Source: Patescibacteria group bacterium
GTDB taxonomy: Bacteria > Patescibacteriota > Minisyncoccia > UBA6257 > HR35
Length of the DNA: 48,488 nt
Assembly (NCBI GenBank): GCA_030549895.1
Contig: JAUQQM010000003.1
Coordinates: 1-48,488, forward strand
Direction: 5' to 3'
The notes below the pieces were generated by a model. It worked only from the letters and a program-made list of their open reading frames with translations, ran no database searches and was not told the origin of the DNA. The translations under genes and the position numbers were made by a program. Of this stretch, positions 1 through 46,578 are shown in pieces; the first letter of the stretch is position 1, and each line of letters begins with the position of its first letter.

Positions 1-155
1 TCGCGAATCTCTGCGAATATAATTAAAAGGAGTAGAAAACTTTAATTGAAATTATCCGTAAATTTAGAAAAAATTAATATCAATAAATGACAGTTTTAGA
101 TGATTAATAGAAATTGTTGCTTTAGATTTTATAAGATACTTAATTTTATTAAATA

Positions 156-244
156 GGCGGAGGGGGTGGGATTTGAACCCACGAGACCTCTTACGAGGTC
201 ACGGCTCTCCAGGCCGTCCCGTTAGACCACTCCGGCACCCCTCC
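156..244 (-). tRNA. tRNA-Ser (anticodon GGA), class II tRNA with long variable arm
   Basis: Reverse complement reads acceptor GGAGGGG ... CCCCTCC (7 bp). Anticodon stem is ACGGC/GCCGT with loop CTGGAGA (GGA). Variable arm is 16 nt (GACCTCGTAAGAGGTC). T arm is GTGGG-TTCAAAT-CCCAC and the discriminator is G. Only CC of CCA is encoded. Confidence 0.85.
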
Positions 245-251
245 AAAATAA

Positions 252-259
252 ATTATAAT
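252..259. promoter_or_regulatory. Palindromic ATTATAAT: two overlapping -10 hexamers for divergent tRNA-Ser (-) and ORF 265 (+)
   Basis: TATAAT on + at 254-259 lies 5 nt before ATG 265. TATAAT on - at 252-257 lies 7 nt before tRNA nucleotide G1 (244). Confidence 0.45.
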
Positions 260-264
260 AAATA

Positions 265-612
265 ATGCTAGTAGGAGATCATAAAATCCTCAAAATAACT
301 TTTTTTCTTTTTATCTTACTTTTCTTTTATTATCTTTTCATTTTTTCACCTCAAAAATGCACTAATCTTAATTTTATAAAAAATTCAACTATTGCTCTGC
401 CAATTTTAAATTTCGGTGCTTTAATAAGTTCTTTTTTGCTTTTTAAAAAAGACTCCCTTTTAATAAAAATCTCTCTTTTTTCTTTTTCTCTTTTGATATT
501 TATTTTAAACTTAATAATGAATATTCTTACTTTTGGTAAGTGCTCTTATCTTTTAATTTCTTTAGTGTGGATATCCGGAATTTTACCTTTTGTCTTGATG
601 CTTTTTTGGTAA
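265..612 (+). CDS. hypothetical small multi-pass membrane protein
   Basis: 115 aa, strongly hydrophobic (F/L/I rich) with about 4 predicted helices. A -10 box sits 5 nt upstream. No recognisable family. AT-rich ORFs of this kind can be spurious. Confidence 0.4.
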   Translation: MLVGDHKILKITFFLFILLFFYYLFIFSPQKCTNLNFIKNSTIALPILNFGALISSFLLFKKDSLLIKISLFSFSLLIFILNLIMNILTFGKCSYLLISLVWISGILPFVLMLFW

Positions 613-622
613 TCTAGAGTTG

Positions 623-631
623 TGATATAAT
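623..631 (+). promoter_or_regulatory. candidate 16S promoter, extended -10 TGATATAAT
   Basis: TGnTATAAT lies about 40 nt upstream of the 16S processing stem. The identical 9-mer precedes RNase P RNA. Confidence 0.4.
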
Positions 632-672
632 TATAATGCTATAAAGTAGATAAAAATTAAAAAAACCTTAAA

Positions 673-696
673 GAGTTTTCTAATCGCCTGGATGGG
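673..696 (+). repeat. 5' arm of 24-bp 16S rRNA processing stem
   Basis: GAGTTTTCTAATCGCCTGGATGGG is the exact reverse complement of 2276-2299. Confidence 0.85.
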
Positions 697-699
697 ATT

Positions 700-2228
<1,529 letters not shown>

Positions 2229-2275
2229 ATTTGAGTTTCAGTCTAAAATTTTAAAAATGAAATTTCAAACTCTTA

Positions 2276-2299
2276 CCCATCCAGGCGATTAGAAAACTC
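2276..2299 (+). repeat. 3' arm of 24-bp 16S rRNA processing stem
   Basis: CCCATCCAGGCGATTAGAAAACTC is the exact reverse complement of 673-696. It ends 4 nt before the ATG at 2304. Confidence 0.85.
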
Positions 2300-2303
2300 A
2301 ACC

Positions 2304-2678
2304 ATGAAAATTTTAGTTGTAGAGGATGAATTTTTCTTAAGGACAATTTTAGAAAAAAAGCTTCAAGCTGAAGGATTTGAGACTGTTGTTGCCACTGACG
2401 GTCAAGAAGCATTAGAAAAAATTGTTTCTGAAAAGCCAGACTTGATTTTGCTTGATATAATTTTGCCGAAAAAAAATGGTTTTGAAGTTCTCGAAGAAAT
2501 TAAAAGAGATCCTTATCTTGCTCAAATACCAGTTATTGTTGTTTCTAATTTAGGTCAAGAAATAGATATTGAAAGAGCTAAAAAATTAGGAGTTAATGAC
2601 TACCTAATAAAAGCTCACACTTCTTTAGATTTAATTTCTAAAAAAATAAAAGAAATAAAAACTAAATTACCAATTTAA
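2304..2678 (+). CDS. single-domain response regulator (CheY-like receiver)
   Basis: 124 aa. Acidic pair (VVEDE), phospho-acceptor Asp in DLILLDIILP, conserved VVVSN and Lys in YLIKAH. No output domain. Confidence 0.85.
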   Translation: MKILVVEDEFFLRTILEKKLQAEGFETVVATDGQEALEKIVSEKPDLILLDIILPKKNGFEVLEEIKRDPYLAQIPVIVVSNLGQEIDIERAKKLGVNDYLIKAHTSLDLISKKIKEIKTKLPI

Positions 2679-3227
2679 ATTATAGTCAGGCAATATATTA
2701 AGATTAGTTCCAACTTCATAAATCCCTTCACTATTTCCTCCATCATTTGTATTAGAAGCGTTATTCATATACCTAGAGCTCTCAAGCCTAGCATTGAGCT
2801 CAAATTGCATTGAAGGTGTATTTGTACAACCATAAACATAATAACCAGCACCTGCAGGATCAGCTGGAAGCATTGAAATAGGTGAACCACCAGTTATCAG
2901 AGTAAAATTAATAGGTATCCAACCAGTTCCATTAATAGCTCTTGACGTTGAACTGACTATAGAAAAACCTGAAGGTAAATTACCAGGAGATACTCCAGGA
3001 CGAGAAACATAAGCATTTGTACAAGTTCCTATAAAGGGTACTTCTACATCAGAAAGATACATAGTAATTGCCCTACTTAAAGCAGCAAGATCATTCATTC
3101 TTCTAGTATCTCTACCTCTTTTTAGAAGTTCATTTGGATTAAGAGCAGTAATTAATATTGTAGCTAAAATTACAATGATACCAATAACTACAATTAGTTC
3201 TACTAAAGTAAAACCTTTTTTTTCCAT
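2667..3227 (-). CDS. type IV pilin / pseudopilin-like protein
   Basis: N-terminus is MEKKG/FTLVELIVVIGIIVILA: a prepilin peptidase G/F site, Glu at +5 and a hydrophobic helix. The C-terminal globular part is variable. Confidence 0.8.
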   Translation of the reverse strand: MEKKGFTLVELIVVIGIIVILATILITALNPNELLKRGRDTRRMNDLAALSRAITMYLSDVEVPFIGTCTNAYVSRPGVSPGNLPSGFSIVSSTSRAINGTGWIPINFTLITGGSPISMLPADPAGAGYYVYGCTNTPSMQFELNARLESSRYMNNASNTNDGGNSEGIYEVGTNLNILPDYNLNW

Positions 3228-3244
3228 GATTTATAATAATTTAA

Positions 3245-3262
3245 AAGCATCAAAAGATGCTT
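3245..3262. promoter_or_regulatory. inverted repeat AAGCATC-AAAA-GATGCTT in the pilin/thiI divergent region
   Basis: A 7-bp perfect inverted repeat with a 4-nt spacer. A related palindrome, GCCATC-AAT-GATGGC, lies upstream of tuf (38102-38116). Confidence 0.35.
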
Positions 3263-3314
3263 CTAATTATTTTTATATATTATTATAATTATACCGCAAA
3301 ATTTATAAAAAAAA

Positions 3315-4436
3315 ATGAATTTGTGGATAATTCATTGGTCAGAAATTGGATTAAAAGGGAAAAATAGAAGTTTTTTTGAAAATAAATTAAAAGAAAATAT
3401 TGAAAAACAAACTGGCTTTAAAGTTAAAAAAATAAAAGGAAGATTTATTGTTGAAGGAGACTTAACTGAGATGATAAATAAAATTCCTGGAATAAGTTAT
3501 GGATTAAAAATAATTGGAGTTTTTGAAAAACCAGAAGAAATTGTCAAAAGTTTAAATTTCAAAGAAAGTTTTACTTTTAAAGTCATCACCAAAAGAGCTG
3601 ATAAAGATTGGCCAGAGACTTCAATAGAAATCTCGAAAAAATTAATGAAACTCATTATGGAAAAATTTCCTTATCTTCAAGTTGATTTTAAAAATCCTCA
3701 AAAAAAGATATATGTCGAATATTTTGAAAAAAAATTTTGGGTAGGACTTGAAAAAATAGTTGGAATTGGTGGTCTTCCAGTTGGAAGTTCTGGTAAAGGC
3801 CTTTCTCTTCTTTCCTGTGGTTTTGACTCACCTGTCGCCAGTTTTTTAATGCTAAAAAGAGGAATGAAATTAGATTTTTTACATTTTTACTCTTACCCTC
3901 AAACTAGTCTTCTTGAAAAAGAAGCCGCTCTTGAAATTTTTAAAATTCTCTCGAGCTATCAACCACAATCTTGTCTTTATCTTTCAAACATCCTTGAAGT
4001 TCAAAAATATCTTTTCAATAATGTGCCTAAAAAATACCTTACCCTTTTTTATAGGAGAGTAATGTTTAAAATAGCAAAAAAATTAAAAGAAGAAAAAAAT
4101 TTAGATGCTTTAATTACGGGTGAAAGTCTAGGACAGGTTGCCTCACAAACGATTCAAAATATCTTAGCTACAACTAAAGATTTAGATGTTTTAATTTTAA
4201 GGCCTCTTATTGGTTTTAATAAACAGGAAATAATAGATATTTCTTATAAAATAGGAACTGGAAAGATTAGTGAGAAAAATTTTCAAGACTGTTGCCTTCT
4301 TTTTAATCCTAAAAATCCTATCACAAAAGCAAGTTTTGAAAAAATAAGAGAAATAGAGTCCAGTCTTACAAAATTAGATGAGTTGATTCAAAAATCTTTT
4401 GAGGAAATTGAAGTTTACCACTGGCCAGGAAAGTAA
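3315..4436 (+). CDS. thiI: tRNA 4-thiouridine synthase ThiI-like (THUMP + PP-loop ATPase)
   Basis: 373 aa. N-terminal WSEIGLKGKNRSFFE, PP-loop-like LLSCGFDSPVA, and GESLGQVASQT. No rhodanese domain. Confidence 0.75.
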   Translation: MNLWIIHWSEIGLKGKNRSFFENKLKENIEKQTGFKVKKIKGRFIVEGDLTEMINKIPGISYGLKIIGVFEKPEEIVKSLNFKESFTFKVITKRADKDWPETSIEISKKLMKLIMEKFPYLQVDFKNPQKKIYVEYFEKKFWVGLEKIVGIGGLPVGSSGKGLSLLSCGFDSPVASFLMLKRGMKLDFLHFYSYPQTSLLEKEAALEIFKILSSYQPQSCLYLSNILEVQKYLFNNVPKKYLTLFYRRVMFKIAKKLKEEKNLDALITGESLGQVASQTIQNILATTKDLDVLILRPLIGFNKQEIIDISYKIGTGKISEKNFQDCCLLFNPKNPITKASFEKIREIESSLTKLDELIQKSFEEIEVYHWPGK

Positions 4437-4615
4437 GGTAAAAGTTTCATCACTCGTGCTCTTTTGACTGCTTGAGCATACCTTCTTTGATGTTTAGCAC
4501 AAAATTGCGTGTATTTTCTGTGCTTTATTTTCATTCCAGCAGAAATAAATTTCTTTAAAATATCAACTTCTTTCCAGTCAGGTTCTTTTTTATTTTTACA
4601 AAACCAGCAATTCAT
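4415..4615 (-). CDS. rpsR: 30S ribosomal protein S18
   Basis: 66 aa. CWFC ... DILKKFISAGMKI..R..TQFCAKHQRRYAQAVKRARVMKLLPY matches the S18 signature. Confidence 0.85.
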   Translation of the reverse strand: MNCWFCKNKKEPDWKEVDILKKFISAGMKIKHRKYTQFCAKHQRRYAQAVKRARVMKLLPYFPGQW

Positions 4616-4950
4616 TATACAAATTCAATCTTGGCAAGCTCACTTCCATCTTTTCTGAACTTGCCAAGCTTTATAACTCTCACATAACCGCCGTTTCTAT
4701 CTTTATATTTTTCTTTCAGTTCATAAAAAACTTTAAAAGCTATTGGCTTTTTAAAAAGACTTAAAAGATACCTAAGAGATGAAAGTCCATTCCTTTTTGC
4801 TCTACTTATTATTTTTTCGATATAACTTTTTAAAGACTTTGCTCTAGTGACTGTTGTTGTAATTCTTCCATGTTCAATCAAGTTAGAAGCTAAAATCCTC
4901 ATGAAAAGCTCTCTTTGATCTTTTTTTCTATGAAATTTTCTCTTTTTCAT
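4615..4950 (-). CDS. rplQ: 50S ribosomal protein L17
   Basis: 111 aa. LASNLIEHGRITTTVTRAKSLKSYIEKIISRAK ... GGYVRVIKLG.RKDGSELAKIEFV. Confidence 0.9.
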   Translation of the reverse strand: MKKRKFHRKKDQRELFMRILASNLIEHGRITTTVTRAKSLKSYIEKIISRAKRNGLSSLRYLLSLFKKPIAFKVFYELKEKYKDRNGGYVRVIKLGKFRKDGSELAKIEFV

Positions 4951-4958
4951 GAAATAAA

Positions 4959-4967
4959 ATTATAACA
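4959..4967 (-). promoter_or_regulatory. extended -10 TGTTATAAT, 8 nt upstream of the L17 ATG
   Basis: The plus strand reads ATTATAACA. The same 9-mer recurs before rpsS, infA and the KH-protein gene. Confidence 0.5.
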
Positions 4968-5253
4968 TATTAAGAAAAATCAAGAACAAATAGAAAACAA
5001 AAATAAAGTTAAAAAAAATATTTAGGTTCAAAATAAAATCCCTTAAATTTTTTATAAAATAAAAAACAAAAAAATTTAAAAAATTAACCAAGAGAGCAAC
5101 ATTTAAAATTTCAAAAATCTTTTCAGTTGGTCCAATTTCAAAAAAACCATTCAAAAAATTAAACCGAAGAGCCGCAATTCCAGGCTTAAAATTAAAAGAA
5201 AGAATTAAAATTAAAAAAAATAAAATTGCATTAAAAATTATTTTCCTCTTCAT
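4960..5253 (-). CDS. hypothetical small membrane protein
   Basis: 97 aa with F/L/I/N-rich hydrophobic segments. Overlaps the alaS 3' end by 23 nt. No recognisable family. Confidence 0.35.
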   Translation of the reverse strand: MKRKIIFNAILFFLILILSFNFKPGIAALRFNFLNGFFEIGPTEKIFEILNVALLVNFLNFFVFYFIKNLRDFILNLNIFFNFIFVFYLFLIFLNML

Positions 5254-6523
5254 GCTTACTTATTTGACGGTGTTCTTGAAAAAGTTCTTCAAATCTAATT
5301 TGGTCCTCTTCTGCCCACAAAATCTTTTCTTCTTTTAAAAGTTCTTTAGTAAGCTCTAAAGGAAAACCATAAGTTGAGAAAAGTAAAAATGCTCCTTTCG
5401 CTTTATCTTGAATTATTCTTTCTTTTTCTTTTTCAAATATTTTTATTCCCCTTTCTAAAATAGCCTCAAATTTTTCTTTTTCTTCTTCAAAAACTTCATA
5501 AATTTTTTCAAAATTATCTATCTCAGGATAAGATAATTTGTAAAATTCAATTACTTTTTGGATCAAAATTTTATCTGATTTTGCTGGTAAATTAAGCTTT
5601 TTGAATTTAAAGAGAAATCTTCTTATTATTCTTCTTAAAACATAACCAGCTCCAACATTAGAAGGCAAAAGTCCATCAGCTATCAAAAAAACAATACCTC
5701 TTAAATGGTCTGCTAAAATTCTTTGATCTTTTATATTTCCTTGATTTTCTTGAGGAATTAATGGCTTTAAAACCTTAAATATACTTTCAAAAGCACTCGT
5801 CTGAAAAATTGTCTCTTTTTTCTCAAAAACTTTAAGTAATCTTTCATAACCCATTCCAGTATCAACTCCTGGACTTTGAAGACGTTCTAATGTTCCATCT
5901 GGAAAACAATAATACTCATTAAAAACTAAATTCCAAACTTCAATGCCATCTATATAAAACTCAACTGTTGGACCACATGGTCCTTCTTTGCCTGTTGGCC
6001 CCCAAAAATTATCTTCTTTAGAACATCCTTTAAGATGACTTTCTTGAAAACCAAGTTCTTTTAAAATTTTGTAACTTTCCTGGTCCTGAGGAATATTATC
6101 TTGGCCAACAAAAAAAGTAACGTAGTCTATTTTAAGATTAAGTTCTTTAACTAGAAAATCTAAAGCCCACTTAATAGCTGATTTTTTAAAATAACCAGAA
6201 CCAGAAAAATCATCTGGATCATCACTCCCAATTGGACCAAAAGAAAAATTACCAAGCATCTCAAAAAAAGTAAGATGTCTCTCATCACCAACTTCTTCGA
6301 TATCAGTTGTTCGAAAACATTTTTGACAAGAAGCAACTCTTTGAGTGCCAAAATCTTTTAAAGGGTCTTTTTTTAAAGTAAAATATTCTTTAAATTGCTG
6401 CATTCCAGCCGTGGTAAGAAGAACAGATGGATCATTTTTTGGTAAAAGAGAAGATGAGGCAACTATTTTATGTCCCCTTTCTTGAAAAAACCTTAAAAAT
6501 CTTTCTTTTAGCTGAAAATACAT
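5231..6523 (-). CDS. alaS: alanyl-tRNA synthetase, catalytic core only (no editing or C-Ala domains)
   Basis: 430 aa. FLRFFQERGHKIVASSSLLPKNDPSVLLTTAGMQQFK, HLTFFEMLGNFSFG, GPCGPTVEFY, VDTGMGYERL, GAGYVLRRIIRR, TYGFPLELT. It ends where the E. coli 461-residue active fragment ends. Confidence 0.85.
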   Translation of the reverse strand: MYFQLKERFLRFFQERGHKIVASSSLLPKNDPSVLLTTAGMQQFKEYFTLKKDPLKDFGTQRVASCQKCFRTTDIEEVGDERHLTFFEMLGNFSFGPIGSDDPDDFSGSGYFKKSAIKWALDFLVKELNLKIDYVTFFVGQDNIPQDQESYKILKELGFQESHLKGCSKEDNFWGPTGKEGPCGPTVEFYIDGIEVWNLVFNEYYCFPDGTLERLQSPGVDTGMGYERLLKVFEKKETIFQTSAFESIFKVLKPLIPQENQGNIKDQRILADHLRGIVFLIADGLLPSNVGAGYVLRRIIRRFLFKFKKLNLPAKSDKILIQKVIEFYKLSYPEIDNFEKIYEVFEEEKEKFEAILERGIKIFEKEKERIIQDKAKGAFLLFSTYGFPLELTKELLKEEKILWAEEDQIRFEELFQEHRQISKHEEENNF

Positions 6524-6532
6524 ATTAATCTG

Positions 6533-7078
6533 TTAAATTTTTATGGGGAAGCCGAGGAGTTCAAAAACTTTAATTTTTTCTTCTTTATTTTTAGCTTTAA
6601 CAACCACATTTACTCCAAGACCAAAATTATAATGAACTCTCTCGGAAATTGTCTCTGGAAAAACACTTACCTCTCTAAAACCAAAATTCAAATTCCCTTC
6701 CTTATCGAAATGTTCTTTTCTAATTCCCTTAAAGTCTTTGTACCTTGGTAAAGCATAAATAAGGAGTCTGGCAAGAAAATCATACATTCTTTTTCTTCTC
6801 AAAGTAACTATTACACTTACTGGCATTCCTTTTTTAAGTTTAAAACTTGCAACTGATTTTTTTGCCTTTACAACTTTAGGCTTTTGGCCAGAAATCATTG
6901 AAAGAACCCAACTTGCTTCTTCAACGATTTTATCTGCCTGAGTAGGGTTTGAGGTCACAAGCTTTCCAATGCCAATATTAAGGACTACTTTTTCGATTTT
7001 AGGCAATTGAAGTTTATTTTTGTAATTAAATTCCTTTTGTAGCTTTTCTTCTAATTCTTTTTTTAAATCTATTTCCAT
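6533..7078 (-). CDS. rplE: 50S ribosomal protein L5
   Basis: 181 aa. LPKIEKVVLNIGIG ... ISGQKPKVVKAKKSVASFKLKKGMPV ... NLNFGFRE. Confidence 0.9.
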   Translation of the reverse strand: MEIDLKKELEEKLQKEFNYKNKLQLPKIEKVVLNIGIGKLVTSNPTQADKIVEEASWVLSMISGQKPKVVKAKKSVASFKLKKGMPVSVIVTLRRKRMYDFLARLLIYALPRYKDFKGIRKEHFDKEGNLNFGFREVSVFPETISERVHYNFGLGVNVVVKAKNKEEKIKVFELLGFPIKI

Positions 7079-7080
7079 GG

Positions 7081-7401
7081 TTAAGTTATTTTACTTTTAC
7101 ATTTTTTGCAGTATCTATATTTTTCTTCGCCCTCTATTAGAAAACCAACTCTTGTTGGTTTTTTGCAATTAGGGCAGATAAGTTTTACATTTGACCAAGA
7201 AACTTTTCGAGGAATAGCTACAATTTGTCCTTTTTCACCTGCTCTTTTAGGCTTTAAATGTTTTTTTACCAAATTAAGTCCTTCAACTATTACTTTTTGT
7301 TCTTTTGGAAAAACTTTAATAACCTTACCAGTTTTAAGCCTGTCTTTACCTTTTATCATTAAAACTAAATCTCCTTTTTTTATCTTTTGCATATTAGACA
7401 A
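7081..7401 (-). CDS. rplX: 50S ribosomal protein L24 (with C-terminal CxxC...CxxC)
   Basis: 106 aa. KIKKGDLVLMIKGKDRLKTGKVIKV...KVIVEGLNLVKKHLKP, then CPNCKKPTRVGF...YCKKCK. Confidence 0.85.
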   Translation of the reverse strand: MSNMQKIKKGDLVLMIKGKDRLKTGKVIKVFPKEQKVIVEGLNLVKKHLKPKRAGEKGQIVAIPRKVSWSNVKLICPNCKKPTRVGFLIEGEEKYRYCKKCKSKIT

Positions 7402-7696
7402 TTTCTTTTATCAGAACTTCATCAAAATAAAGTTTTGTTCCTATTTTTTTATGATATCTTGTCTTTGGTTTAAACTTACCAACAACTATCTTTTCTTTAA
7501 TCTCTCTTATCACTTCACCAATAACTTTATTTGGAAGGTATGGTTGACCTATTTTCAGCTCTTCACCATCAAAAATAAGTAAAACCTTATCAAATTCAAC
7601 AATTTTGTCTTTTTTATTCTTTATTTTTTTTATTTTTATTTTATCTCCAGGACTAACTAAAAATTGATTTCCTCCTGTCTCTATTATGGCTAACAT
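7394..7696 (-). CDS. rplU: 50S ribosomal protein L21
   Basis: 100 aa. MLAIIETGGNQFLVSPGDKIKI ... EFDKVLLI ... GKFKPKTRYHKKIG. Confidence 0.85.
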   Translation of the reverse strand: MLAIIETGGNQFLVSPGDKIKIKKIKNKKDKIVEFDKVLLIFDGEELKIGQPYLPNKVIGEVIREIKEKIVVGKFKPKTRYHKKIGTKLYFDEVLIKEIV

Positions 7697-7699
7697 GTT

Positions 7700-8398
7700 T
7701 TAGGAAATTTTTATTAAATTAAATTGATGAACTAAAATATCTATAGCCTGATTGTAAGCTTCGATTGGATCAATCGTCCCATCAGTTTCAATATAAATCT
7801 TCAAAAAATTATAATCTGTTCTCTCACCAATACGCATATTCTCAACTTCAAAATTAACCTTTCTTACTGGAGAAAAGATAGCATCCAAAAAAATAGCATC
7901 TGTCTCTGGAGAATTTTTTCTTATTTCTTCAGCGCTTACAAAACCAATACCTTTTTCAACTTTCATTCTCATTTTTAAAGATGCTTTCTTGTCAGTAAGT
8001 GTGGCTATATGAAGTTCTGGATTGACAATTCGGCAATTAGAAGGAACTGTAATGTCTCCTGCCTTTACTTCCACTTCTCCTTTTGCTTCCAAGTAAATTT
8101 CTTGTGGTTCAGAGGTAAGCATCTCTATTCTTACCTGCTTTAAGTTAAGAGTTATTTCTAACACATCCTCAAGAACGCCTGGAAGAGTAGAGAATTCATG
8201 CAAAACATTTTCTATTTTAACTGTGGTAATTGCTGCTCCAGGAATAGAAGAAAGTAAAATCCTTCTTAAAGCATTACCTACTGTTACCCCATAACCTGGA
8301 TAAAGTCCTTTTATACCTATAAGAACAGAATTTTTTTCTCTACTTAAAAGTTGAATATTTTGAGCTATAAAAATTTTGTTGGTAATAATCTGATCCAT
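7700..8398 (-). CDS. rpoA: DNA-directed RNA polymerase alpha subunit, N-terminal domain only
   Basis: 232 aa. GYGVTVGNALRRILLSSIPGAAIT, VLHEFSTLPGV.EDV, ETDGTIDPIEAYNQAIDILVHQF. The stop falls where the linker and C-terminal domain would begin. L21 starts 4 nt later. Confidence 0.85.
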   Translation of the reverse strand: MDQIITNKIFIAQNIQLLSREKNSVLIGIKGLYPGYGVTVGNALRRILLSSIPGAAITTVKIENVLHEFSTLPGVLEDVLEITLNLKQVRIEMLTSEPQEIYLEAKGEVEVKAGDITVPSNCRIVNPELHIATLTDKKASLKMRMKVEKGIGFVSAEEIRKNSPETDAIFLDAIFSPVRKVNFEVENMRIGERTDYNFLKIYIETDGTIDPIEAYNQAIDILVHQFNLIKIS

Positions 8399-8411
8399 AA
8401 TTTAAAAATAA

Positions 8412-8429
8412 AACCAACAAAAGTTGGTT
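8412..8429 (-). terminator. weak hairpin plus U-tract between rpsD and rpoA (possible attenuator)
   Basis: Minus strand reads TAACCAAC-TTTT-GTTGGTT followed by TTATTTTTAAATT and then the rpoA ATG. The stem is 5-7 bp and AT-rich. Confidence 0.3.
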
Positions 8430-9042
8430 ATCTTCCGTAAAATTCTACTATTAAAGAAAAATTAAACGGTAATTTTAATTCTTCTAAAATTGGCTCTTTA
8501 ATAAGTTTTCCTTCTAATTTTTCTTTATCAAGCTCTAAAAATGACGGTGGTTTATATCTTTTAATTCTTTCCCTAATTCCTCCAAAAAGTCCATTTTTAA
8601 GACTTTGTGGTCTTATAGAGATAACATCGCCAATTTCTACCAGGTAGGATGGTCTATCAACTCTTTTGCCATTAACAAAAATATGACCATGAACAACTGC
8701 CTGTCTTGCCTGGGGTCTAGAACTAAAAAATCCTAATCTATAGACAATATTGTCAAGTCTTCTTTCTAAAATTTTAGCTAAGGCTTGAGGGGTTGGTTCT
8801 GGCATTTTCTCTGCCATAAGAAAATATCTTTTCATTTGTCTTTCTCTTAAAAGATAATAAAACTTTACTTTCTGTTTTTCAATAAGTTCTTTACCATATT
8901 CAGAAAGAAGTCTTATCTTGGCACCATGCTCTCCAGGTCTTGTTCTCCTTCTGGTAAGAGCACATTTAGGAGAAGCGCAACGATCATTGAGTAAAAGCTT
9001 CTGGCCATACATTCTACAAAGTTTACATTTATATTTCAGCAT
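8428..9042 (-). CDS. rpsD: 30S ribosomal protein S4
   Basis: 204 aa. N-terminal Cys cluster CKLC...C..PKC, SEYGKELIEKQKVKFYY, RLDNIVYRLGF..SR.QARQ.V.HGHI.VNG. Confidence 0.9.
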   Translation of the reverse strand: MLKYKCKLCRMYGQKLLLNDRCASPKCALTRRRTRPGEHGAKIRLLSEYGKELIEKQKVKFYYLLRERQMKRYFLMAEKMPEPTPQALAKILERRLDNIVYRLGFFSSRPQARQAVVHGHIFVNGKRVDRPSYLVEIGDVISIRPQSLKNGLFGGIRERIKRYKPPSFLELDKEKLEGKLIKEPILEELKLPFNFSLIVEFYGR

Positions 9043-9043
9043 A

Positions 9044-9475
9044 TTAGACTCTCCTTACTTTTGGTGGTGTTGGGCCACCAAAAGGAACGGGTGTAATATC
9101 TTCTATCATTATTATTGGAAGTTCTTTTGAAAAAAGCATTTTAAGAGCTGAATCCCTACCAGGACCAAAACCATTAACAAAGACTTTAATCTTTTCTATA
9201 CTATAGTCTTTTAGTCTTTCAACTAAAACTTCAACTACTCTTGAACCAGCATAAGGTGTGCTTTTTTTAGTACCTTTAAAACCAATCTGACCAGTAGAAA
9301 TACTTTCATAAACATTACCATTTTCATCAGTAAGAGTTGCAAAAGTATTATTCCATTTTGCTTTAATATAAATTCTGGCAACAGGTAAACTAATTTTTTT
9401 CTTCTTCTTTTCTTGGACCTGACTTGGTGTTTTTTCTTCTATACCACTAAGGGTTGTAACTCTTTTTTTACCCAT
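9044..9475 (-). CDS. rpsK: 30S ribosomal protein S11
   Basis: 143 aa. NNTFATLTD..GN......G..GFKGTKKSTPYAG ... GPGRDSALK ... ITPVPFGGPTPPKVRRV. Confidence 0.9.
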   Translation of the reverse strand: MGKKRVTTLSGIEEKTPSQVQEKKKKKISLPVARIYIKAKWNNTFATLTDENGNVYESISTGQIGFKGTKKSTPYAGSRVVEVLVERLKDYSIEKIKVFVNGFGPGRDSALKMLFSKELPIIMIEDITPVPFGGPTPPKVRRV

Positions 9476-9476
9476 G

Positions 9477-9860
9477 TTATTTCTTTTCTAATTTTCTTTT
9501 GCCAGAGGTAACAGTATGTCTTACATTACCTCTGACGGTTCGGGAATTTGTTCTTGTTCTTTGACCCCTAACAGGAAGTTTCTTCTGGTGTCTTATCCCC
9601 CGATAGCAACCTATCCTTATAAGTCTTTTGATGTTTTCTTGAATTTCCCTTCGAAGGTCACCCTCGACTTTAAATTTTTTTTCAATATAACTTTGAAGTT
9701 TATTAATTTCTTCACTAGTAAGTTGGGATGTTTTTTTATTTGGATCAATATTAAGTTCCTGAACTATTTTTTTTGCCAAAGAAAAACCTATCCCATATAT
9801 ATAAGGGAGAGCATAAATTATTTTTTTGTCTGGCAAATTAACTCCTACAATTCTTACCAT
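9477..9860 (-). CDS. rpsM: 30S ribosomal protein S13 (start moved to MVRIVGV)
   Basis: Canonical N-terminus is MVRIVGVNLP. The track ORF start at 9902 would overlap rpmJ. Also GCYRGIRHQKKLPVRGQRTRTNSRT. Confidence 0.85.
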   Translation of the reverse strand: MVRIVGVNLPDKKIIYALPYIYGIGFSLAKKIVQELNIDPNKKTSQLTSEEINKLQSYIEKKFKVEGDLRREIQENIKRLIRIGCYRGIRHQKKLPVRGQRTRTNSRTVRGNVRHTVTSGKRKLEKK

Positions 9861-9865
9861 GCTAT

Positions 9866-9982
9866 TTAACCTTGTCTTTGTTTGTGTTTTTTTATTTTGC
9901 AAATAACATAAAGCCTACCTTTCCTTCTTACAATTTTACAATCTTGACATCTTCTTTTTACTGAAGAATGAACTTTCATCAT
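9866..9982 (-). CDS. rpmJ: 50S ribosomal protein L36 (below the ORF-track length cutoff)
   Basis: My translation of the minus strand gives [38 protein letters not shown] followed by a stop. This is the canonical L36 zinc motif. The ATG overlaps the infA TGA (ATGATGA). Confidence 0.85.
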
Positions 9983-10185
9983 TTCCTCCTTATAATCCTC
10001 CCCTTGTTAGGATCATAAGGACTAAGTTCTACTAATACAATATCCCCGGGCACAATTTTAATATAATTCAACCTCATTTTACCCGAAAGATAAGCCCAAA
10101 TTTCTCTATCTCCTACTTTTACTCTAAAGGTAGTATCTGGTAAGCTTTCAATTACCTGACCCTCGACAATTTCTTTTTTTTTCAT
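9979..10185 (-). CDS. infA: translation initiation factor IF-1
   Basis: 68 aa. G.V.E.LP...F.V.......[23 protein letters not shown]...GRI..R. Confidence 0.9.
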
Positions 10186-10196
10186 AAAGATATTAA

Positions 10197-10205
10197 ATTA
10201 TAACA
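10197..10205 (-). promoter_or_regulatory. extended -10 TGTTATAAT, 11 nt upstream of the infA ATG
   Basis: The plus strand reads ATTATAACA. Confidence 0.45.
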
Positions 10206-10219
10206 TAAAAATTTTAAAG

Positions 10220-10882
10220 TTATAAATTCAATTTTTTACCAGTTTTTTTTCTAAATTCTTCTATTTTCTTATGGTCCCCCTTTAAAAGTACTTTAGGCAC
10301 TTTGAGAATTTTATCTAAAAATTTAACTTTCTGTGGTCTAGTATAGACAGGAAAAGAAAAATAACCTCTTTTCTCTTCTAAAGAATTTTCATTAATTACA
10401 CCTTCTAAAGTTCTTGTGAGAGAATCAATCACAATCATTGCTGGTATCTCACCACCAGTCAAAATAAAATTACCAACAGAAAGTTTAAGATCACTAACCT
10501 TAGCTACTCTTTCATCAACGCCTTCATAATGACCGCAAATAAGAACAATCTCTTTGAATTTCTTTAATTTAGCTATCATCTTCTGATTAAAAATTTTCCC
10601 TTTAAGATCAAAAAATATAATTATTCTTTCTTCTTTCTTGTATTTTGATTTTTTAATTATCTTCTCGAGAGCTCGCAAAAATGGTTCTGGTTTCATGACC
10701 ATCCCATATCCACCACCATAAGGTCTGTCATCTAAGTTGTCTTTGGTAAATTTTTTAAGATCGTGAATTTTTATCTTTATTATATTTTTATTTTGAGCTC
10801 TTTTTAAAATTGAAGTAAAAAGATAACCAAATGATTCTGGAAAGGCACTTAAAATATGAAAAGTTATTTTTGGTTCCTTCAA
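10220..10882 (-). CDS. trmD: tRNA (guanine37-N1)-methyltransferase TrmD
   Basis: 220 aa. DDRPYGGGYGMVMKPEP, ICGHYEGVDERV, SVGNFILTGGEIPAMIVIDS. Confidence 0.9.
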   Translation of the reverse strand: MKEPKITFHILSAFPESFGYLFTSILKRAQNKNIIKIKIHDLKKFTKDNLDDRPYGGGYGMVMKPEPFLRALEKIIKKSKYKKEERIIIFFDLKGKIFNQKMIAKLKKFKEIVLICGHYEGVDERVAKVSDLKLSVGNFILTGGEIPAMIVIDSLTRTLEGVINENSLEEKRGYFSFPVYTRPQKVKFLDKILKVPKVLLKGDHKKIEEFRKKTGKKLNL

Positions 10883-10884
10883 GT

Positions 10885-11184
10885 TTAGCTTTTAAGATCT
10901 TCTATAACTTCGTCGACAGACATTTTACTCGATTTTGGTTCTTCAACTTTAAGGTTAACTCTGGCATGATTCTTGAGTCCTATTGCTCTTATTAAAACTC
11001 TTAAGGCCTTTATCATGTTCCCTTTTTTACCAATTACAAGGCCAACATCATGAGGATTAACTTTTATAGAAAGCAATACACCCATTTCATCAATTTTTCT
11101 TTCTATTTTTATATCCTCTGGTTTTGTTACTAATGATTTTAGAATCGTTTCAAGTACTTCTTGATAAACTGGTTTTTCCATCAT
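10885..11184 (-). CDS. KH-domain RNA-binding protein (YlqC/KhpA-like)
   Basis: 99 aa. The GLVIGKKGNMIKALRVLI (GxxG) KH motif. It sits next to trmD as in rpsP-ylqC-rimM-trmD operons. Confidence 0.75.
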   Translation of the reverse strand: MMEKPVYQEVLETILKSLVTKPEDIKIERKIDEMGVLLSIKVNPHDVGLVIGKKGNMIKALRVLIRAIGLKNHARVNLKVEEPKSSKMSVDEVIEDLKS

Positions 11185-11190
11185 ATTTGC

Positions 11191-11202
11191 AAGCGGCCGC
11201 TT
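11191..11202. promoter_or_regulatory. 12-bp perfect palindrome AAGCGGCCGCTT inside a GC-rich structured leader
   Basis: An all-G/C 8-mer core (GCGGCCGC) in a roughly 30% GC genome, 7 nt upstream of the KH-protein ATG. Adjacent hairpin GCTTT-TCGAG-AAAGC. Confidence 0.3.
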
Positions 11203-11251
11203 TCTCGAAAAGCAACACCGCCTGATTCTCTTAAAAACTTGATAATGTTAT

Positions 11252-11260
11252 ATTATAACA
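11252..11260 (-). promoter_or_regulatory. extended -10 TGTTATAAT upstream of the KH-trmD genes (about 60-nt leader)
   Basis: The plus strand reads ATTATAACA and overlaps the gap stop codon. Confidence 0.4.
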
Positions 11261-12251
11261 CACTGGAAAGTTCTAAAATATGCTTTTTAAGCATAGCACA
11301 ATAACCCCATTCATTATCATACCAGGAAAAGACTTTGACCAAGTCACCATCAATAACTCTTGTAAGAGTAAGATCAATTATAGCTCCATAAGGCTCTTTT
11401 ATAATATCAGAAGAAACAACAGGTTCTTTTACTATCTTTACGATCCCTTGCCAAAATTTTTCTACCTCTTCCTCAAAAATAGAATTAACTTCCTCGACTG
11501 AGGTTTTCCTCTTAACTAGAATTGTAAGATCTGAAAGTGAACCACAAATAACAGGGACTCTTATAGAAATACCATCAAATTTATTTTTCAAAAAAGGCAA
11601 AACTCTTACAGTAGCTTCAGCTGCACCAGTTGTTGAAGGTACAATATTAAAAGCAGCTGCCCTTCCTCTCCTAAAATCATTGCTTTTGACAATTCCATCA
11701 ACAAGGCTTTGGGTATTAGTGTAAGCATGAATAGTCGTAAGAGATGCTTTTAAAATTCCTAATCTTTTCTCTATTATGGCTAAAACTGGATTTACTGAAT
11801 TAGTGGTACAAGAAGCATTTGAAGTAATTAACTGATCTTGAAAAACAAACTCACCCAAATTTGGAGTTAAAGTTAAAATGTCATCTTTTGGAGGAGCAGT
11901 AAGAACAACAGCCTTAGCACCAGCTTTTAAATGTTTTTTTGCTTTTTCTTTTTCAGTAAAAACGCCTGTTGCTTCAACTACAAGGTCAATTTGAAGATCT
12001 TTCCAAGGAAGTTTTTCTGGATCTTGTTCTTTTAAAATTAAGATTTTTTTACCTTCAATTTTAAAATTTCCCTCTTCTAAGATGACTTCTTTTTCAAATT
12101 TACCATAAACAGAATCATATTTTAAAAGATAAAGAAGGTTTTCTGGGCTGGAAAGATCGTTTATAGCAATGAGGTCAATTCGAGGATCGTCAATCACTTG
12201 TCTAAAAAATATTCTTCCAATTCTCCCAAAACCATTAATTGCTATTTTCAT
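11253..12251 (-). CDS. gap: glyceraldehyde-3-phosphate dehydrogenase, type I
   Basis: 332 aa. MKIAINGFGRIGR, active-site SNASCTTNS, WYDNEWGY. Confidence 0.9.
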   Translation of the reverse strand: MKIAINGFGRIGRIFFRQVIDDPRIDLIAINDLSSPENLLYLLKYDSVYGKFEKEVILEEGNFKIEGKKILILKEQDPEKLPWKDLQIDLVVEATGVFTEKEKAKKHLKAGAKAVVLTAPPKDDILTLTPNLGEFVFQDQLITSNASCTTNSVNPVLAIIEKRLGILKASLTTIHAYTNTQSLVDGIVKSNDFRRGRAAAFNIVPSTTGAAEATVRVLPFLKNKFDGISIRVPVICGSLSDLTILVKRKTSVEEVNSIFEEEVEKFWQGIVKIVKEPVVSSDIIKEPYGAIIDLTLTRVIDGDLVKVFSWYDNEWGYCAMLKKHILELSSVL

Positions 12252-13284
12252 TTTTTACTAAAACTGAAGAGGAACTAAATAAGTTCTTCTCTTCAGTTTT
12301 AAAATTTTCTAACATTTTAAACCTTAAAAACACCTCTTGTAATCTTTTTAGAGAATTCTCATAAGCATTTTGAGCATTTTTTAAATGATGGCCAACTTTG
12401 GTAAAATCTTCATTTAATTTCTCAAATTCTTTATTTACTCTTTGCATCCCCTCAAGAACTTCTTTTATATTTTTTTCTATTACCTGCCCCTTTATAAGAA
12501 GTAAGATACTTTGAAGATAAGCATAAAGAATGTTGGGTGAAACTGGAATAACATTTTTAGTGCGGCAATAATCAATAATTTCTTCTTTTTGCGTTAAAAG
12601 CCAATAATAGATAGCTTCAGCTGGAATATACATAAAAGCATAAGAAAGGGTTTTTTTGTCTGGTAAAATATATTTTTTAGCTATCTCATTTACTCTTTCT
12701 TTAACGCTTTTTATAAATTCTCTCTCGTACCTTTCTTTTTCTTTTTCATCTTGAGCTTCTATCGATCTTTTATAACTTTCTAAAGGAAATTTTGAATCAA
12801 TAACAAGAACTTTATCTTCTAATTTGATAACAAAATCAGCAATTTGGCCTTCAAGAAAGTAATTTGCCTCCCAATAACTTTGTGGGAGATAATTTCTTAA
12901 AAGATCTTCAAGTAAAAATTCCCCAACATTACCTCTTATTTTAGGTATTTGAAAAAGCTCTTTTAAAGAAATAATATCTTGAGCTCTTTTTTGAATTTCT
13001 TCAAAAACACTCTGGGCTTGAGTTAAAGAAACTGAAAGACTCTTTTGCATTTCACCAAAATTCTTACTTAACTCAAAAAGACTTCTTTGAAAAGTATCTT
13101 GATGAGAAAGAAAATTTTGAAGAATTTCTTGCTTTAAAATAAAAAATTCATTTTTAGAAAAATCTGAAATTTGTTTTATTATCTCTTGGGTTTGTGTTTG
13201 TTGAGCTATCTTAATTTCTTTCTTTAAAATAATATAGACAAGAGCAAGTGCTAACAAAAAAAATATAAGATAAAAAATGTTCAT
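12235..13284 (-). CDS. rmuC: DNA recombination protein RmuC
   Basis: 349 aa. N-terminal TM helix, long coiled coil, then VLVIDSKFPLESY ... FMYIPAEAIYY ... IPVSPN, typical of RmuC. Confidence 0.7.
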   Translation of the reverse strand: MNIFYLIFFLLALALVYIILKKEIKIAQQTQTQEIIKQISDFSKNEFFILKQEILQNFLSHQDTFQRSLFELSKNFGEMQKSLSVSLTQAQSVFEEIQKRAQDIISLKELFQIPKIRGNVGEFLLEDLLRNYLPQSYWEANYFLEGQIADFVIKLEDKVLVIDSKFPLESYKRSIEAQDEKEKERYEREFIKSVKERVNEIAKKYILPDKKTLSYAFMYIPAEAIYYWLLTQKEEIIDYCRTKNVIPVSPNILYAYLQSILLLIKGQVIEKNIKEVLEGMQRVNKEFEKLNEDFTKVGHHLKNAQNAYENSLKRLQEVFLRFKMLENFKTEEKNLFSSSSVLVKNENSN

Positions 13285-14302: not shown

Positions 14303-14303
14303 T

Positions 14304-14798: not shown

Positions 14799-14801
14799 AA
14801 A

Positions 14802-15128: not shown

Positions 15129-15149
15129 ACAAATAAATTATAACATAAT
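15122..15149 (+). promoter_or_regulatory. near-consensus promoter TTGACA-16 nt-CATAAT, 6 nt upstream of ATG 15156
   Basis: -35 TTGACA at 15122-15127 overlaps the rpsS start codon. -10 CATAAT at 15144-15149. Full TTGACA boxes were otherwise seen only before rpoB and the 23S leader. Confidence 0.5.
15137..15145 (-). promoter_or_regulatory. extended -10 TGTTATAAT, 8 nt upstream of the rpsS ATG (leaderless-type)
   Basis: The plus strand reads ATTATAACA. Confidence 0.5.
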
Positions 15150-15155
15150 TTTATT

Positions 15156-15822: not shown

Positions 15823-15839
15823 AGATAAATTATAACCTT

Positions 15840-16631: not shown

Positions 16632-16638
16632 TTTTAAA

Positions 16639-16646
16639 ATTATAAT
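16639..16646. promoter_or_regulatory. Palindromic ATTATAAT in the 22-bp parB/lepA divergent spacer
   Basis: TATAAT on + (16641-16646) is 7 nt from the lepA ATG (16654). TATAAT on - (16639-16644) is 7 nt from the parB ATG (16631). Confidence 0.5.
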
Positions 16647-16653
16647 ATATTTT

Positions 16654-19322: not shown

Positions 19323-19328
19323 TAAATT

Positions 19329-19337
19329 ATTATAGCA
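19329..19337 (-). promoter_or_regulatory. extended -10 TGCTATAAT, 6 nt upstream of ATG 19322
   Basis: The plus strand reads ATTATAGCA. Confidence 0.4.
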
Positions 19338-19379: not shown

Positions 19380-20180
19380 ATGTTAGATACTATTTTGAAA
19401 TTTCATAAAAAACTAGATCTTAGAGTTGGCGAAATTGTTGAAGGTGAAGTTATAGAAAAAAGAGCTTCAGAAGTTTTTATTGATCTTGGAATTTTTGGAA
19501 TTGGAAGAATATATGGACTTGAATATATGACAAATAAAGATATCATAAAAGATTTAGAAGTTGGGGAAAAAATAAAAGTAAAGGTTGTTGGACTTAAAGA
19601 TAAATTTGGTTATATTGAGCTTTCATTTAGAGGAATTAAAAATATGATAGGTTGGGAAAGAGTAAAAGAAGCTTATGAAAAAAATGAAATTCTAGAATTA
19701 GAAGTAAAAGATGTCAATAATGGTGGTCTTATTGTAAATTGCTTTTCTTTAAAAGGTTTTGTCCCTGTTTCTCATCTTATGCCCCAATACTATCCAAGAG
19801 TTCAAGAAAATGAAAAAAACAAAATTGCTTTTTATCTTAGAAATTTAATTGGCAAAAAATTAAGATTAAGAATAATAGATTTTAATCCTGAAGAAGAAAA
19901 ATTAATCCTTTCTCAAAAAGCAGCTGAAGAAGAAACTATTCAAAATTACCTTATGCAACTTAAAGTTGGTCAAATTGTCGAAGGAGTAGTTACGGGTATT
20001 AGCAAGTTTGGAGTTTTTATCAAAATAAAGGATTGGCCAATCGAGGGGCTTGTCCATATTTCTGAAATTCCTAGCCAAATAAAAGAAGAATTAAAAATAG
20101 GTTCTGACATTAAAGCTAAAATCTTAAAAATAGAAGGTAATAGAGTCTTTTTCACTTTAAAGTTTTCTGAACAAGTATGA
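19380..20180 (+). CDS. S1 RNA-binding domain protein (short ribosomal protein S1-like, about 3 S1 repeats)
   Basis: 266 aa. Repeated G.(I/V).(E/K)G.V.......G.F(I/V)..., for example VGEIVEGEVIEK..SEVFIDLG and VGQIVEGVVTGISKFGVFIKI. Confidence 0.7.
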   Translation: MLDTILKFHKKLDLRVGEIVEGEVIEKRASEVFIDLGIFGIGRIYGLEYMTNKDIIKDLEVGEKIKVKVVGLKDKFGYIELSFRGIKNMIGWERVKEAYEKNEILELEVKDVNNGGLIVNCFSLKGFVPVSHLMPQYYPRVQENEKNKIAFYLRNLIGKKLRLRIIDFNPEEEKLILSQKAAEEETIQNYLMQLKVGQIVEGVVTGISKFGVFIKIKDWPIEGLVHISEIPSQIKEELKIGSDIKAKILKIEGNRVFFTLKFSEQV

Positions 20181-25000: not shown

Positions 25001-25622
25001 TTGAAACTTCAAAAATAGCACCAAATTTCCTTGAATACTCATAGTACTCAACATCCGAAAGTATAGATTTTACTTTTATTTTTTCCAATTCCATCATATT
25101 TCTATTGTAGATCTCTTTTATTCTTTCTCTTTGAGCTGGATCTTCGGTTTTCATCAATTCTTTAAATTCTTGATCTATCTTTTCTTTTACTTTTTGTTTT
25201 TCTAATTCGTTTACTTTTGTAATGATATAAGCAGAATAATAAATAACTTTCTCTAATTGCTGAACAGGAATATCTAAAATTAAAGAAATTCTAGAAGGAA
25301 CAATTCTTAAAAACCAAATATGAGCAACAGGAATAGCTAAAGAAATATGACCCATTCTTTCTCTTCTCACATAATTAGAAGTAACCTCAACTAAGCATCT
25401 ATCACAAACCATTCCTTTAAATTTTATTCCTTTTAATTTACCACAATAACACTCGTAGTTTTTTGTAGGACCAAAAATTCTTTCAGAAAAAAGTCCATCT
25501 TTATCAGCTTTTTGAGTTCTATAGTTAATAGTTTCTGGTTTTAAAACTTCACCATAAGACCAACTTAAAATAGTCTCTGGTGAGGCAATAGTAATTTTTA
25601 ATGATTTAATTTCTCCTTTCAT
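22083..25622 (-). CDS. rpoC: DNA-directed RNA polymerase beta' subunit
   Basis: 1179 aa. Zn finger CYCGK...C.RC, catalytic NADFDGDQMAVH, and trigger loop/bridge helix regions are recognisable. Confidence 0.95.
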   Translation of the reverse strand: MKGEIKSLKITIASPETILSWSYGEVLKPETINYRTQKADKDGLFSERIFGPTKNYECYCGKLKGIKFKGMVCDRCLVEVTSNYVRRERMGHISLAIPVAHIWFLRIVPSRISLILDIPVQQLEKVIYYSAYIITKVNELEKQKVKEKIDQEFKELMKTEDPAQRERIKEIYNRNMMELEKIKVKSILSDVEYYEYSRKFGAIFEVSIGSEPIVKFLEEIDLEKLKKETEEKIAKAKGNEKKKLLLKLKVIKGFIKNKTRPEWMFLTVLPVIPPDLRPAIQLETGTYASSDLNDLYRRVINRNNRLKKLIEFRAPEIILRNEKRMLQEAVDALLDNTIRKTQAVKRTGGTKRPLKSLAESLKGKEGRFRKNLLGKRVDFSGRAVIIVGPELKLYECGLPKTLALEIFKPFVIRELIERGIATNPSHANYIIETKSDEVWAALEKVIEDKYVLLNRAPTLHRLGIQAFKPVLVDGLAIRIPPFVCTAFNADFDGDQMAVHLPLTDEAQLEAREIMLSSKNILKPGSGEPITVPTLDVVLGCYYLTLKTFSEKEKVFYDEDEALFYYENGQINLHEEILVKRVKNQKDLKTTVGRIIFNKILPADFDFVNEVMTKKKLIELIDEIYHKYDLEIVVFVLDSLKSLGFKYAEKSGLSLSVSDFLSFPEQKEMVFKEIEKDIEKIEESFENGLISEEERKLLKIEIYSRAIKKINDMYKERVEKEIFNPPRIMIDAGAKGNWGQLTQMASLKGLVTNPAGEIIELPIKSNYKEGLSPLGYFVSTHGARKGTVDTALKTSKAGYLTRRMVDVAQDVTIIEADCKDKTGWIITKQDAKEVNEPFWYKIYSRVSLERIEKDGEIIVDVGEFITKEKAKIIESLGKESLRVRSPLTCKSIYGICALCYGLDLAYDKPIKIGEACGIVAAQSIGEPGTQLTMRTFHVGGVAGSADITTGIPRVEELLEARNPKNEGVISPVSGKIEEIKKETKYYKVLINTNNGKITINVPIVLTLNVKPGDQINKGDIISSGPLSPKKLFKLKGKEAAIRYLLNEVKKIYTFQGVTIHDKHFEVIIRQMFSRAKIIDPGDSEFVKNEIVEKAVILERNKELKKSGLKLIKAKEILLGITRAALTTYSFLSAASFQETARVLVKAAIEGRVDKLRGIKENVILGKKIPAGTGVRGFVFD

Positions 25623-46547: not shown

Positions 46548-46578
46548 ATTTTATCATAAAATTTTTATCCTTTATAAT
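46548..46578. promoter_or_regulatory. back-to-back -10 boxes for nusA (-) and ORF 46585 (+)
   Basis: Minus strand TGATAAAAT (46548-46556) is 6 nt from the nusA ATG. Plus strand TATAAT (46573-46578) is 6 nt from ATG 46585. Confidence 0.45.

Follow-up and report, generated by a model that had tools for sequence, protein, structure and literature searches.

A 16S rRNA tail without the anti-Shine-Dalgarno core in a genome, probably of the Parcubacteria type, whose gene starts follow SD-independent styles

Pairing between the Shine-Dalgarno (SD) sequence of an mRNA and the anti-SD of 16S rRNA is the textbook means by which bacteria choose a start codon, and a 16S rRNA gene that appears to lack the CCUCC core of the anti-SD raises the question of how the genes of its genome are started. 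Such a gene lies in the stretch of DNA analyzed here (48,488 nucleotides, referred to throughout as the window), which belongs to an assembly of 470,788 bases (470.8 kb) in 8 contigs, with ~29% GC and a completeness of 88.4%. An earlier reading of the window made from its letters alone (the sequence-only reading) had proposed that the core is missing from the 16S tail and that the genes look SD-independent or leaderless, with -10 boxes directly ahead of operon-first genes and overlaps joining many of the internal ones.

The missing core is borne out by three lines of evidence, namely the Rfam alignment, a direct read of the letters behind helix 45 and a blastn search that finds the gene in single copy. 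The features concerned are as follows.

700..2230, + strand: complete bacterial 16S rRNA gene (Rfam RF00177, model positions 1-1533, 1457.8 bits, not truncated; the single blastn match in the assembly)
2194..2217, + strand: helix 45, CACCGC ... GCGGTG with a GGGGAACC loop (direct read and Rfam alignment)
2218..2235, + strand: 3′ tail AAACAACTCTGATTTGAG, in the anti-SD position and without CCTCC (direct read and Rfam alignment)
673..696, + strand: 5′ arm of the pre-16S processing stem (half of a perfect 24-nt inverted repeat whose partner is 2276-2299)
2276..2299, + strand: 3′ arm of the pre-16S processing stem (half of a perfect 24-nt inverted repeat whose partner is 673-696)

The strands of helix 45 were read directly at 2194-2199 and 2212-2217, and in the alignment of the end region GAAACAACUCUGAU pairs with the model 3′ end GGAUcACCUCCUUu at high posterior, giving a predicted mature 3′ end for the 16S rRNA. 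CCTCC was not found anywhere in 2101-2400, in line with the claim that it is missing from 2211 up to the processing stem, and blastn over the 8-contig assembly found no second rrs copy. A 20-nt run without CCTCC is uninformative by itself; the observation takes its weight from the alteration of a conserved rRNA position and from the fact that relatives share the alteration. The inverted repeat around the 16S gene is a normal precursor processing stem, extended by base pairs between the 16S 5′ end and the trailer (duplex of -61.1 kcal/mol). A receiver-only response-regulator gene (Pfam Response_reg; 2300-2678, + strand) starts at 2304, 4 nt past the 3′ arm of this stem and without a -10 box of its own; it may be cotranscribed with the 16S precursor and freed by cleavage of the stem. 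The rRNA genes are unlinked, with the 16S gene (700-2230, + strand) lying ~38.6 kb from the 23S-5S pair (40812-43923, - strand).

The comparison with related genomes that had been proposed as a check indicates that the loss is inherited. The nearest relative (G011), 89% identical over the 16S 3′ domain, has the tail GAAACATCTCTGATT, and CCTCC was found in none of the 19 other family tails (20 aligned with the window's own) and in none of the 7 readable tails from the order. The 3′ strand of helix 45 and the tail begin GCGATGGA in 18 of these 19 family genomes, after which the family majority reads CCAATTCTGTTT, while AATTA replaces CCTCC in six of the seven tails from other families of the order. 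The first ~19 nt past helix 45 are conserved within the family (majority-base identity of 0.6 to 1.0) before identity falls to ~0.4, which argues that the tail is not drifting freely and is held by a constraint other than SD pairing; pure relaxed selection leaves this conservation unexplained. In another genome of the same order (L029; G032:C5) the 16S 3′ domain matches as two separate segments, 1854-2066 and 2389-2428, and the distance between them exceeds that in the query by ~250 nt, which suggests an insertion in that rRNA gene.

Beyond the order, the motif is divided. We drew 150 genomes evenly from the class, and among the 89 that carry the exact 16S anchor, CCTCC is kept behind helix 45 in 32 and missing in 57. 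All stages of decay are represented in the 30 class tails that were read out. One C-to-T change (C-to-U in the RNA) is all that sets the tail of one genome (G078) apart from those of three genomes that have the same helix 45 and still carry CCTCC. Taken together, the single-step change and the range of decay stages suggest that CCUCC has been lost recurrently within the class. In a sample of 121 genomes from the phylum, which includes 116 from other classes, anchor and CCTCC occur together in 67 genomes, every one of them from another class; the count is over the whole sample rather than over readable anchors.

Genome-wide counts agree with the claim that GGAGG-like motifs are missing ahead of most of the starts inspected. 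Gene calling gave 472 open reading frames (ORFs) of at least 70 amino acids under a first-ATG rule (92% coding), a crude procedure under which some starts are wrong; seven ORFs inside RNA genes were dropped, and 462 genes with 60 nt of upstream sequence were kept. GGAG, GAGG or AGGA occurs at -22 to -4 ahead of 43 of the 462 starts, compared with 66 of 462 stretches inside genes, and the 5-mers AGGAG and GGAGG number 10 upstream and 9 inside genes (of 462). G is depleted ahead of starts (5 to 18% at -25 to -1), and C is depleted too. Hybridization energies, which the sequence-only reading had asked to see against shuffled controls, carry no signal: duplexes of the -22 to -3 region with the canonical tail or with 13, 18 or 30 nt of the real tail are no better than those of shuffled upstream regions, and duplexes at start regions are weaker than those of far-upstream or intragenic stretches. 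Within the window, an SD 4-mer precedes 5 of 51 genes. Those before rpsD and rplN, like the string before rpmJ, had been listed as exceptions inside upstream coding sequence; the first two do lie there, and the third consists of the two AGG arginine codons that end infA.

The same pipeline detects SD use where it exists. In 52 genes from a stretch of Escherichia coli K-12 the SD is found upstream of 60% of starts and inside 6% of genes, with G at 40 to 48% at positions -11 to -7; we take this stretch as the real control because three CCTCC-keeping genomes of the class were themselves without SD enrichment. We ran the pipeline on 24 other genomes, with 40 to 176 genes each from crude calls and with genomes that are related and so not independent. 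Nine CCTCC-keeping genomes of the class (five with and four without the ribosomal protein uL1) all lack SD enrichment, with 7 to 16% upstream against 9 to 25% inside genes. Of the 12 genomes that represent other classes, SD use is clear in three (45% upstream against 3% inside, 41% against 12%, and 36% against 14%), weak in a few more and missing in several. Since all nine CCUCC-keeping relatives are without enrichment, the disuse of the SD probably came before the loss of CCUCC.

What stands ahead of many starts instead is a -10 box at a fixed short distance. Exact TATAAT at -14 to -11 is found at 97 of 469 starts (97 of 462 after filtering), compared with 48 of 10,602 non-start ATGs (0.45%), an enrichment of ~46-fold. 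With a match of at least 5 of 6 positions to TATAAT and a fixed TA...T, starting at -14 to -11, 131 of 462 genes (28%) have a box; control windows of the same width at -34 to -31 and -54 to -51 have 20 and 23 of 462 by this measure (5 to 8 for exact TATAAT), and non-start ATGs have 2.87%. The position of the box peaks at -12, and the aligned sites have T and G three and two bases upstream, as in an extended -10 element, and no -35 signal. In agreement with the claim that operon-first genes often stand right behind such a box, 79 of 198 first-in-unit genes have one at -14 to -11, and 98 of 198 do when spacers of up to 11 nt are allowed; divergently oriented genes have the box in 60 of 110 cases and internal genes in 52 of 264. 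ATG starts 130 of the 131 box genes, a figure that is partly circular given a caller that prefers ATG (440 of 462 overall). Across the 55 divergent pairs the gap has a median of 43 nt, and among the 32 with gaps of at most 60 nt a box is present on both sides in 13 and on one side in 14 (27 of 32 with at least one). Sampled in the same way across genomes, the signal at starts is highest here (29% against 4% in a control window) and in a family relative (22% against 9%).

Transcription by sigma-70 usually starts 6 to 9 nt from the -10 hexamer. A hexamer at -12 leaves 6 nt before the ATG, and with spacers of 5 to 8 nt the A of the ATG would be the first base transcribed, giving a leaderless mRNA; by this promoter geometry, the box genes should be transcribed from the A of their AUG. 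Every -10 box listed by the sequence-only reading was found, including the following.

4959..4967, - strand: extended -10 box TGTTATAAT, 8 nt before the ATG of rplQ (L17, 4615-4950; Pfam L17)
10197..10205, - strand: extended -10 box TGTTATAAT, 11 nt before the ATG of infA (9979-10185; Pfam IF-1)
15137..15145, - strand: extended -10 box TGTTATAAT, 8 nt before the ATG of rpsS (14802-15128; Pfam S19)
16632..16653, no strand assigned: the 22-nt gap between the divergent genes parB and lepA, with a pair of TATAAT boxes that overlap, 7 nt separating each from its ATG (Pfam ParB, LepA)
19328..19336, - strand: TGCTATAAT box as seen on the reverse complement, 5 nt ahead of the ATG of a 58-aa ORF (19146-19322)
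46548..46556, - strand: TGATAAAAT box, 6 nt before the ATG of ORF 45462-46541

The last of these faces the TATAAT box of ORF 46585 across a 43-nt gap. The TGCTATAAT element that had been placed at 19329 is present, and it is its assignment that needs correction, since the gene behind this minus-strand box is ORF 19146-19322 and not the S1 gene at 19380.

Pfam confirms the names that had been given to the genes for L17, S19, IF-1, LepA, ParB, Ni-SOD (18421-18903) and RuvC (39118-39612). For the ORF that had been named rpsF (38212-38514, + strand), Pfam has no match at E ≤ 0.001. This ORF overlaps the next one (38511-38933) by 4 nt. Among the other RNA genes of the window, a tRNA-Ile with anticodon UAU (22005-22077, - strand; ARAGORN call and Rfam tRNA match) represents an unusual way of reading AUA, a codon normally read by a lysidine-modified CAU tRNA. 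The genes for tmRNA (32344-32652) and RNase P RNA (32661-32972), both on the - strand, lie head to tail, 8 nt apart.

Three other readings of these data have to be weighed, and two of them concern the tail. The real working 16S rRNA could carry CCUCC after all, either on an unassembled second rrs copy or because the tail is misassembled here, and it is true that the genome is only 88.4% complete and that metagenome assemblies often miss rRNA genes. Contigs from three DNA sequencing runs of three studies, one run possibly being the source, nonetheless span the 16S interior, the tail and the next gene (2030-11325, 2030-3268 and 2009-7691); none of the run differences listed falls at 2211-2235, sequencing depth on the flanking contigs matches that over the remainder of the window (~156 to 170), and CCTCC is missing also from the nearest relative and from all 19 other family tails. 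We regard an artifact as extremely unlikely. That the tail holds a changed but working anti-SD, its core ACUCU pairing with a coevolved motif such as AGAGU or GAGUUG ahead of starts, could draw on the conservation of the family tail for ~19 nt past helix 45, which implies some constraint on it. Motifs complementary to the tail, however, are as frequent upstream of starts as far upstream and inside genes (AGAGT, 9, 8 and 11; GAGTT, 13, 11 and 10; AGAGTT, 5, 6 and 6), duplexes with 13, 18 or 30 nt of the real tail are not distinguishable from those of shuffled upstream regions (p = 0.08 to 0.18), and G and C are both depleted ahead of starts. This reading is largely refuted, and we hold it to be very improbable.

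The third reading accepts SD independence and disputes the leaderless part: the TATAAT-like element would be an AU-rich element of the mRNA, for example an S1 or standby site, and most mRNAs would have ordinary leaders. AU-rich start regions are expected in a genome of 29% GC, the element is also found in 52 of 264 internal genes, which would put many boxes inside operons, and the transcription starts are predictions from promoter geometry. Against this, the element has the hallmarks of a sigma-70 promoter, with an invariant TA...T, a TG two bases upstream, a sharp peak of position and a spacer of 5 to 8 nt, at which the usual start distance falls on the A of the ATG. First-in-unit (40%) and divergent (60 of 110) genes are enriched for it, 130 of the 131 genes that bear it start with ATG, and divergent gaps with a median of 43 nt leave no room for promoters plus leaders. 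We consider an element of the mRNA unlikely, and favor promoters that would yield leaderless transcripts. At the level of sequencing runs, near-identical DNA is present in 17, mostly labeled hot springs metagenome and from several studies. One of the four compared over positions 1-20000 of the window (X10) holds a strain with 167 differences over 5.7 kb. An RNA library (X16), available as contigs only, matches the same 20 kb in at least 7 pieces of 211 to 582 nt with 0 to 2 differences each; among the pieces listed none lies over the 16S 3′ end, and such contigs give no usable transcript ends.

About half of the first-in-unit genes are without a box at leaderless distance, so that another mechanism is needed for them. 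Features bearing on these genes and on the internal ones are given below.

25619..25622, - strand: ATGA stop/start overlap of rpoB and rpoC (names from the sequence-only reading), one of 8 in the window (sequence)
19380..20180, + strand: short bS1-like protein of 266 aa with three S1 domains (Pfam)

All eight ATGA or 4-nt overlaps that had been listed are real, and they represent a general habit of the genome: among 349 same-strand neighbor pairs, 62 overlap by 4 nt (ATGA) and 10 by 1 nt, and 254 have gaps of at most 20 nt. A box is missing from 324 genes, and the upstream gene is no more than 20 nt away in 208 of these. Overlapping and abutting genes are probably started by ribosomes that have just terminated, reinitiation being what this layout points to. 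Box-less genes have A at -3 in 65% of cases and C and G in 5% each. The preference is not merely an effect of stop codons, since it persists (64%) in the 91 box-less genes more than 20 nt from any neighbor; it gives a Kozak-like context that resembles what is described for Bacteroidota. The three-domain S1 protein is a candidate for helping SD-independent initiation on leadered mRNAs. Local unfolding of the mRNA was considered as a start signal and set aside: predicted structure at starts shows only a small dip (approximately -2.3 compared with -3.0 kcal/mol per 40 nt), weak because at 29% GC there is little structure anywhere in the transcriptome.

The tail can also be set beside the proteins that the genome is missing. 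uL1 (PF00687) has no match in this genome at its 88.4% completeness, whereas it was found in 14 of 14 control genomes, and it passes the cutoff in 22 of 151 genomes of the class. When uL1 and the tail are cross-tabulated by hand over the class sample, CCTCC is kept in every one of the 15 genomes that have uL1 and a readable tail, all 57 CCTCC-less genomes are without uL1, and 17 keep CCTCC without uL1. For bS21 the genome has only a subthreshold match. Era was not found in the genome, where the search returns a generic GTPase match of 33.7 bits against a cutoff of 116, and it reaches the cutoff in 1 of 151 class genomes. According to the part available of a review, the KH domain of Era binds GAUCACCUCC, described there as GAUCA plus CCUCC, and most members of the candidate phyla radiation (CPR) have lost Era (PMC10582724). 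We rejected Era as the factor that decides which lineages lost CCUCC, as it is missing from 150 of 151 genomes of the class regardless of the tail they have; its absence removes one constraint for all of them and does not separate genomes that keep the anti-SD from those without it. The small genome, the missing uL1 and Era and the pattern across the class all fit an affiliation with Parcubacteria and the CPR. The best matches of EF-Tu (71 to 77%) include Paceibacterota, Campbellbacteria, Moraniibacteriota and Nomurabacteria, but non-CPR lineages are found among them as well, and the protein is too conserved for a firm assignment.

We think it probable that this is a CPR bacterium of the Parcubacteria/Paceibacteria type whose ribosome works without anti-SD pairing, that its genes are started in leaderless, coupled and AU-rich modes, and that the core was lost under relaxed selection. 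Under this model about a quarter of the genes, and ~40 to 50% of those first in their unit, would stand 5 to 8 nt behind an extended -10 box, have their transcripts begin on the A of the AUG and be read as leaderless mRNAs. The majority of the remaining genes, which overlap or abut the one before them, would be begun by ribosomes that have just terminated there, and the few leadered first genes would rely on AU-rich, barely structured starts with A at -3, possibly helped by the three-domain S1 protein. The mRNAs would have stopped using the SD before the CCUCC core was lost, and Era, the assembly GTPase that binds GAUCACCUCC, would have gone from the class. With both known readers of the core (SD mRNAs and Era) gone, the core may be expected to decay under relaxed selection, which is how loss of CCUCC has been read elsewhere once the SD is unused (PMC10783764). 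More tentatively, loss of the anti-SD could be the last step of an ordered dismantling of SD initiation across Paceibacteria, a possible but doubtful extension of the model. Era would have gone class-wide, with the SD unused even where CCUCC and uL1 were kept; uL1 would then have been lost, and CCUCC would have decayed only in the uL1-less part and repeatedly, as the single C-to-U step of G078 might illustrate. The conserved replacement tail of ~19 nt may then have a new job, for example in 30S maturation or in the handling of 5′-terminal AUGs on a ribosome specialized for leaderless mRNAs.

Each element of this arrangement has counterparts in known systems. In bacteria rich in leaderless genes (Actinobacteria and Deinococcus; "group C" of GeneMarkS-2), a -10 box lies at a fixed short distance from the ATG; these bacteria keep a working anti-SD and use the SD on their leadered genes, and their transcription starts have been mapped experimentally. 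The likeness lies in the box at a fixed short distance, which in our genome is found in 28% of genes with a peak at -12, and the difference is that here the anti-SD is gone, the leadered genes are without an SD and the starts are predicted from sequence. Bacteroidota keep the anti-SD but sequester it, initiate independently of the SD and have a Kozak-like A at -3. They share with this genome the lack of SD enrichment, AU-rich start regions and A at -3 (65% here), and differ in that they keep the anti-SD, whereas here CCUCC is missing and leaderless promoters are far more frequent. The nine CCUCC-keeping relatives from the class resemble the Bacteroidota state, with an anti-SD that is kept and unused.

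Among systems without the core, the closest likeness outside the CPR is the SD-scarce, CCUCC-less category iv of a recent survey, which shares the absence of CCUCC and of stable pairing between 16S rRNA and mRNA upstream of starts (PMC10783764). Its members are Nanoarchaeia, Flavobacteriia of the Weeksellaceae type, haemoplasmas, Hodgkinia and the like, and the main text of the survey makes no mention of Parcubacteria, Patescibacteria or CPR (PMC10783764). The SD scarcity reported here was measured with 4-mers and duplexes, by which very low SD pairing was found, a measure different from the 5.5% thermodynamic threshold of that survey (PMC10783764). In the main texts of the literature searched, we found no description of a leaderless gene organization in Patescibacteria, CPR or Parcubacteria.

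The loss as such has been described. In the portion available of Tsurumaki, Saito, Tomita, and Kanai (2022, RNA 28:1041, PMC9297842), an anti-SD motif is detected in 48% of Parcubacteria and a subgroup lacks it, and the likeness to our genome, itself probably of the CPR/Parcubacteria type, is a 16S rRNA without CCTCCT. The overlap that they report between anti-SD-less genomes and the uL1-lacking group is reproduced here (57 of 57), and the share that keeps the motif is similar, 32 of 89 in our class sample compared with their 48% (PMC9297842). That portion of the paper treats the absence of the motif in two sentences, leaves its function open and does not analyze SD use, promoters or leaderless layout (PMC9297842).

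A large and abundant lineage without the rRNA half of the SD:anti-SD pair is a natural test of whether leaderless and coupled initiation can carry a whole proteome. It also has a practical side: gene callers whose scoring includes ribosome-binding sites will put starts in the wrong place in such genomes, and a model based on promoter distance would do better. Loss of the anti-SD tail is already published for a subgroup of Parcubacteria, to which this organism probably adds one more case, and the SD-independent styles of its gene starts (leaderless, coupled and A-rich) are known from elsewhere, so that the window contributes confirmation and context rather than a discovery. What our analysis adds is the class-wide disuse of the SD even where CCUCC is kept, the nested pattern that the tail forms with uL1 and Era, and the conservation that the tail retains; all three can be tested on existing genomes.
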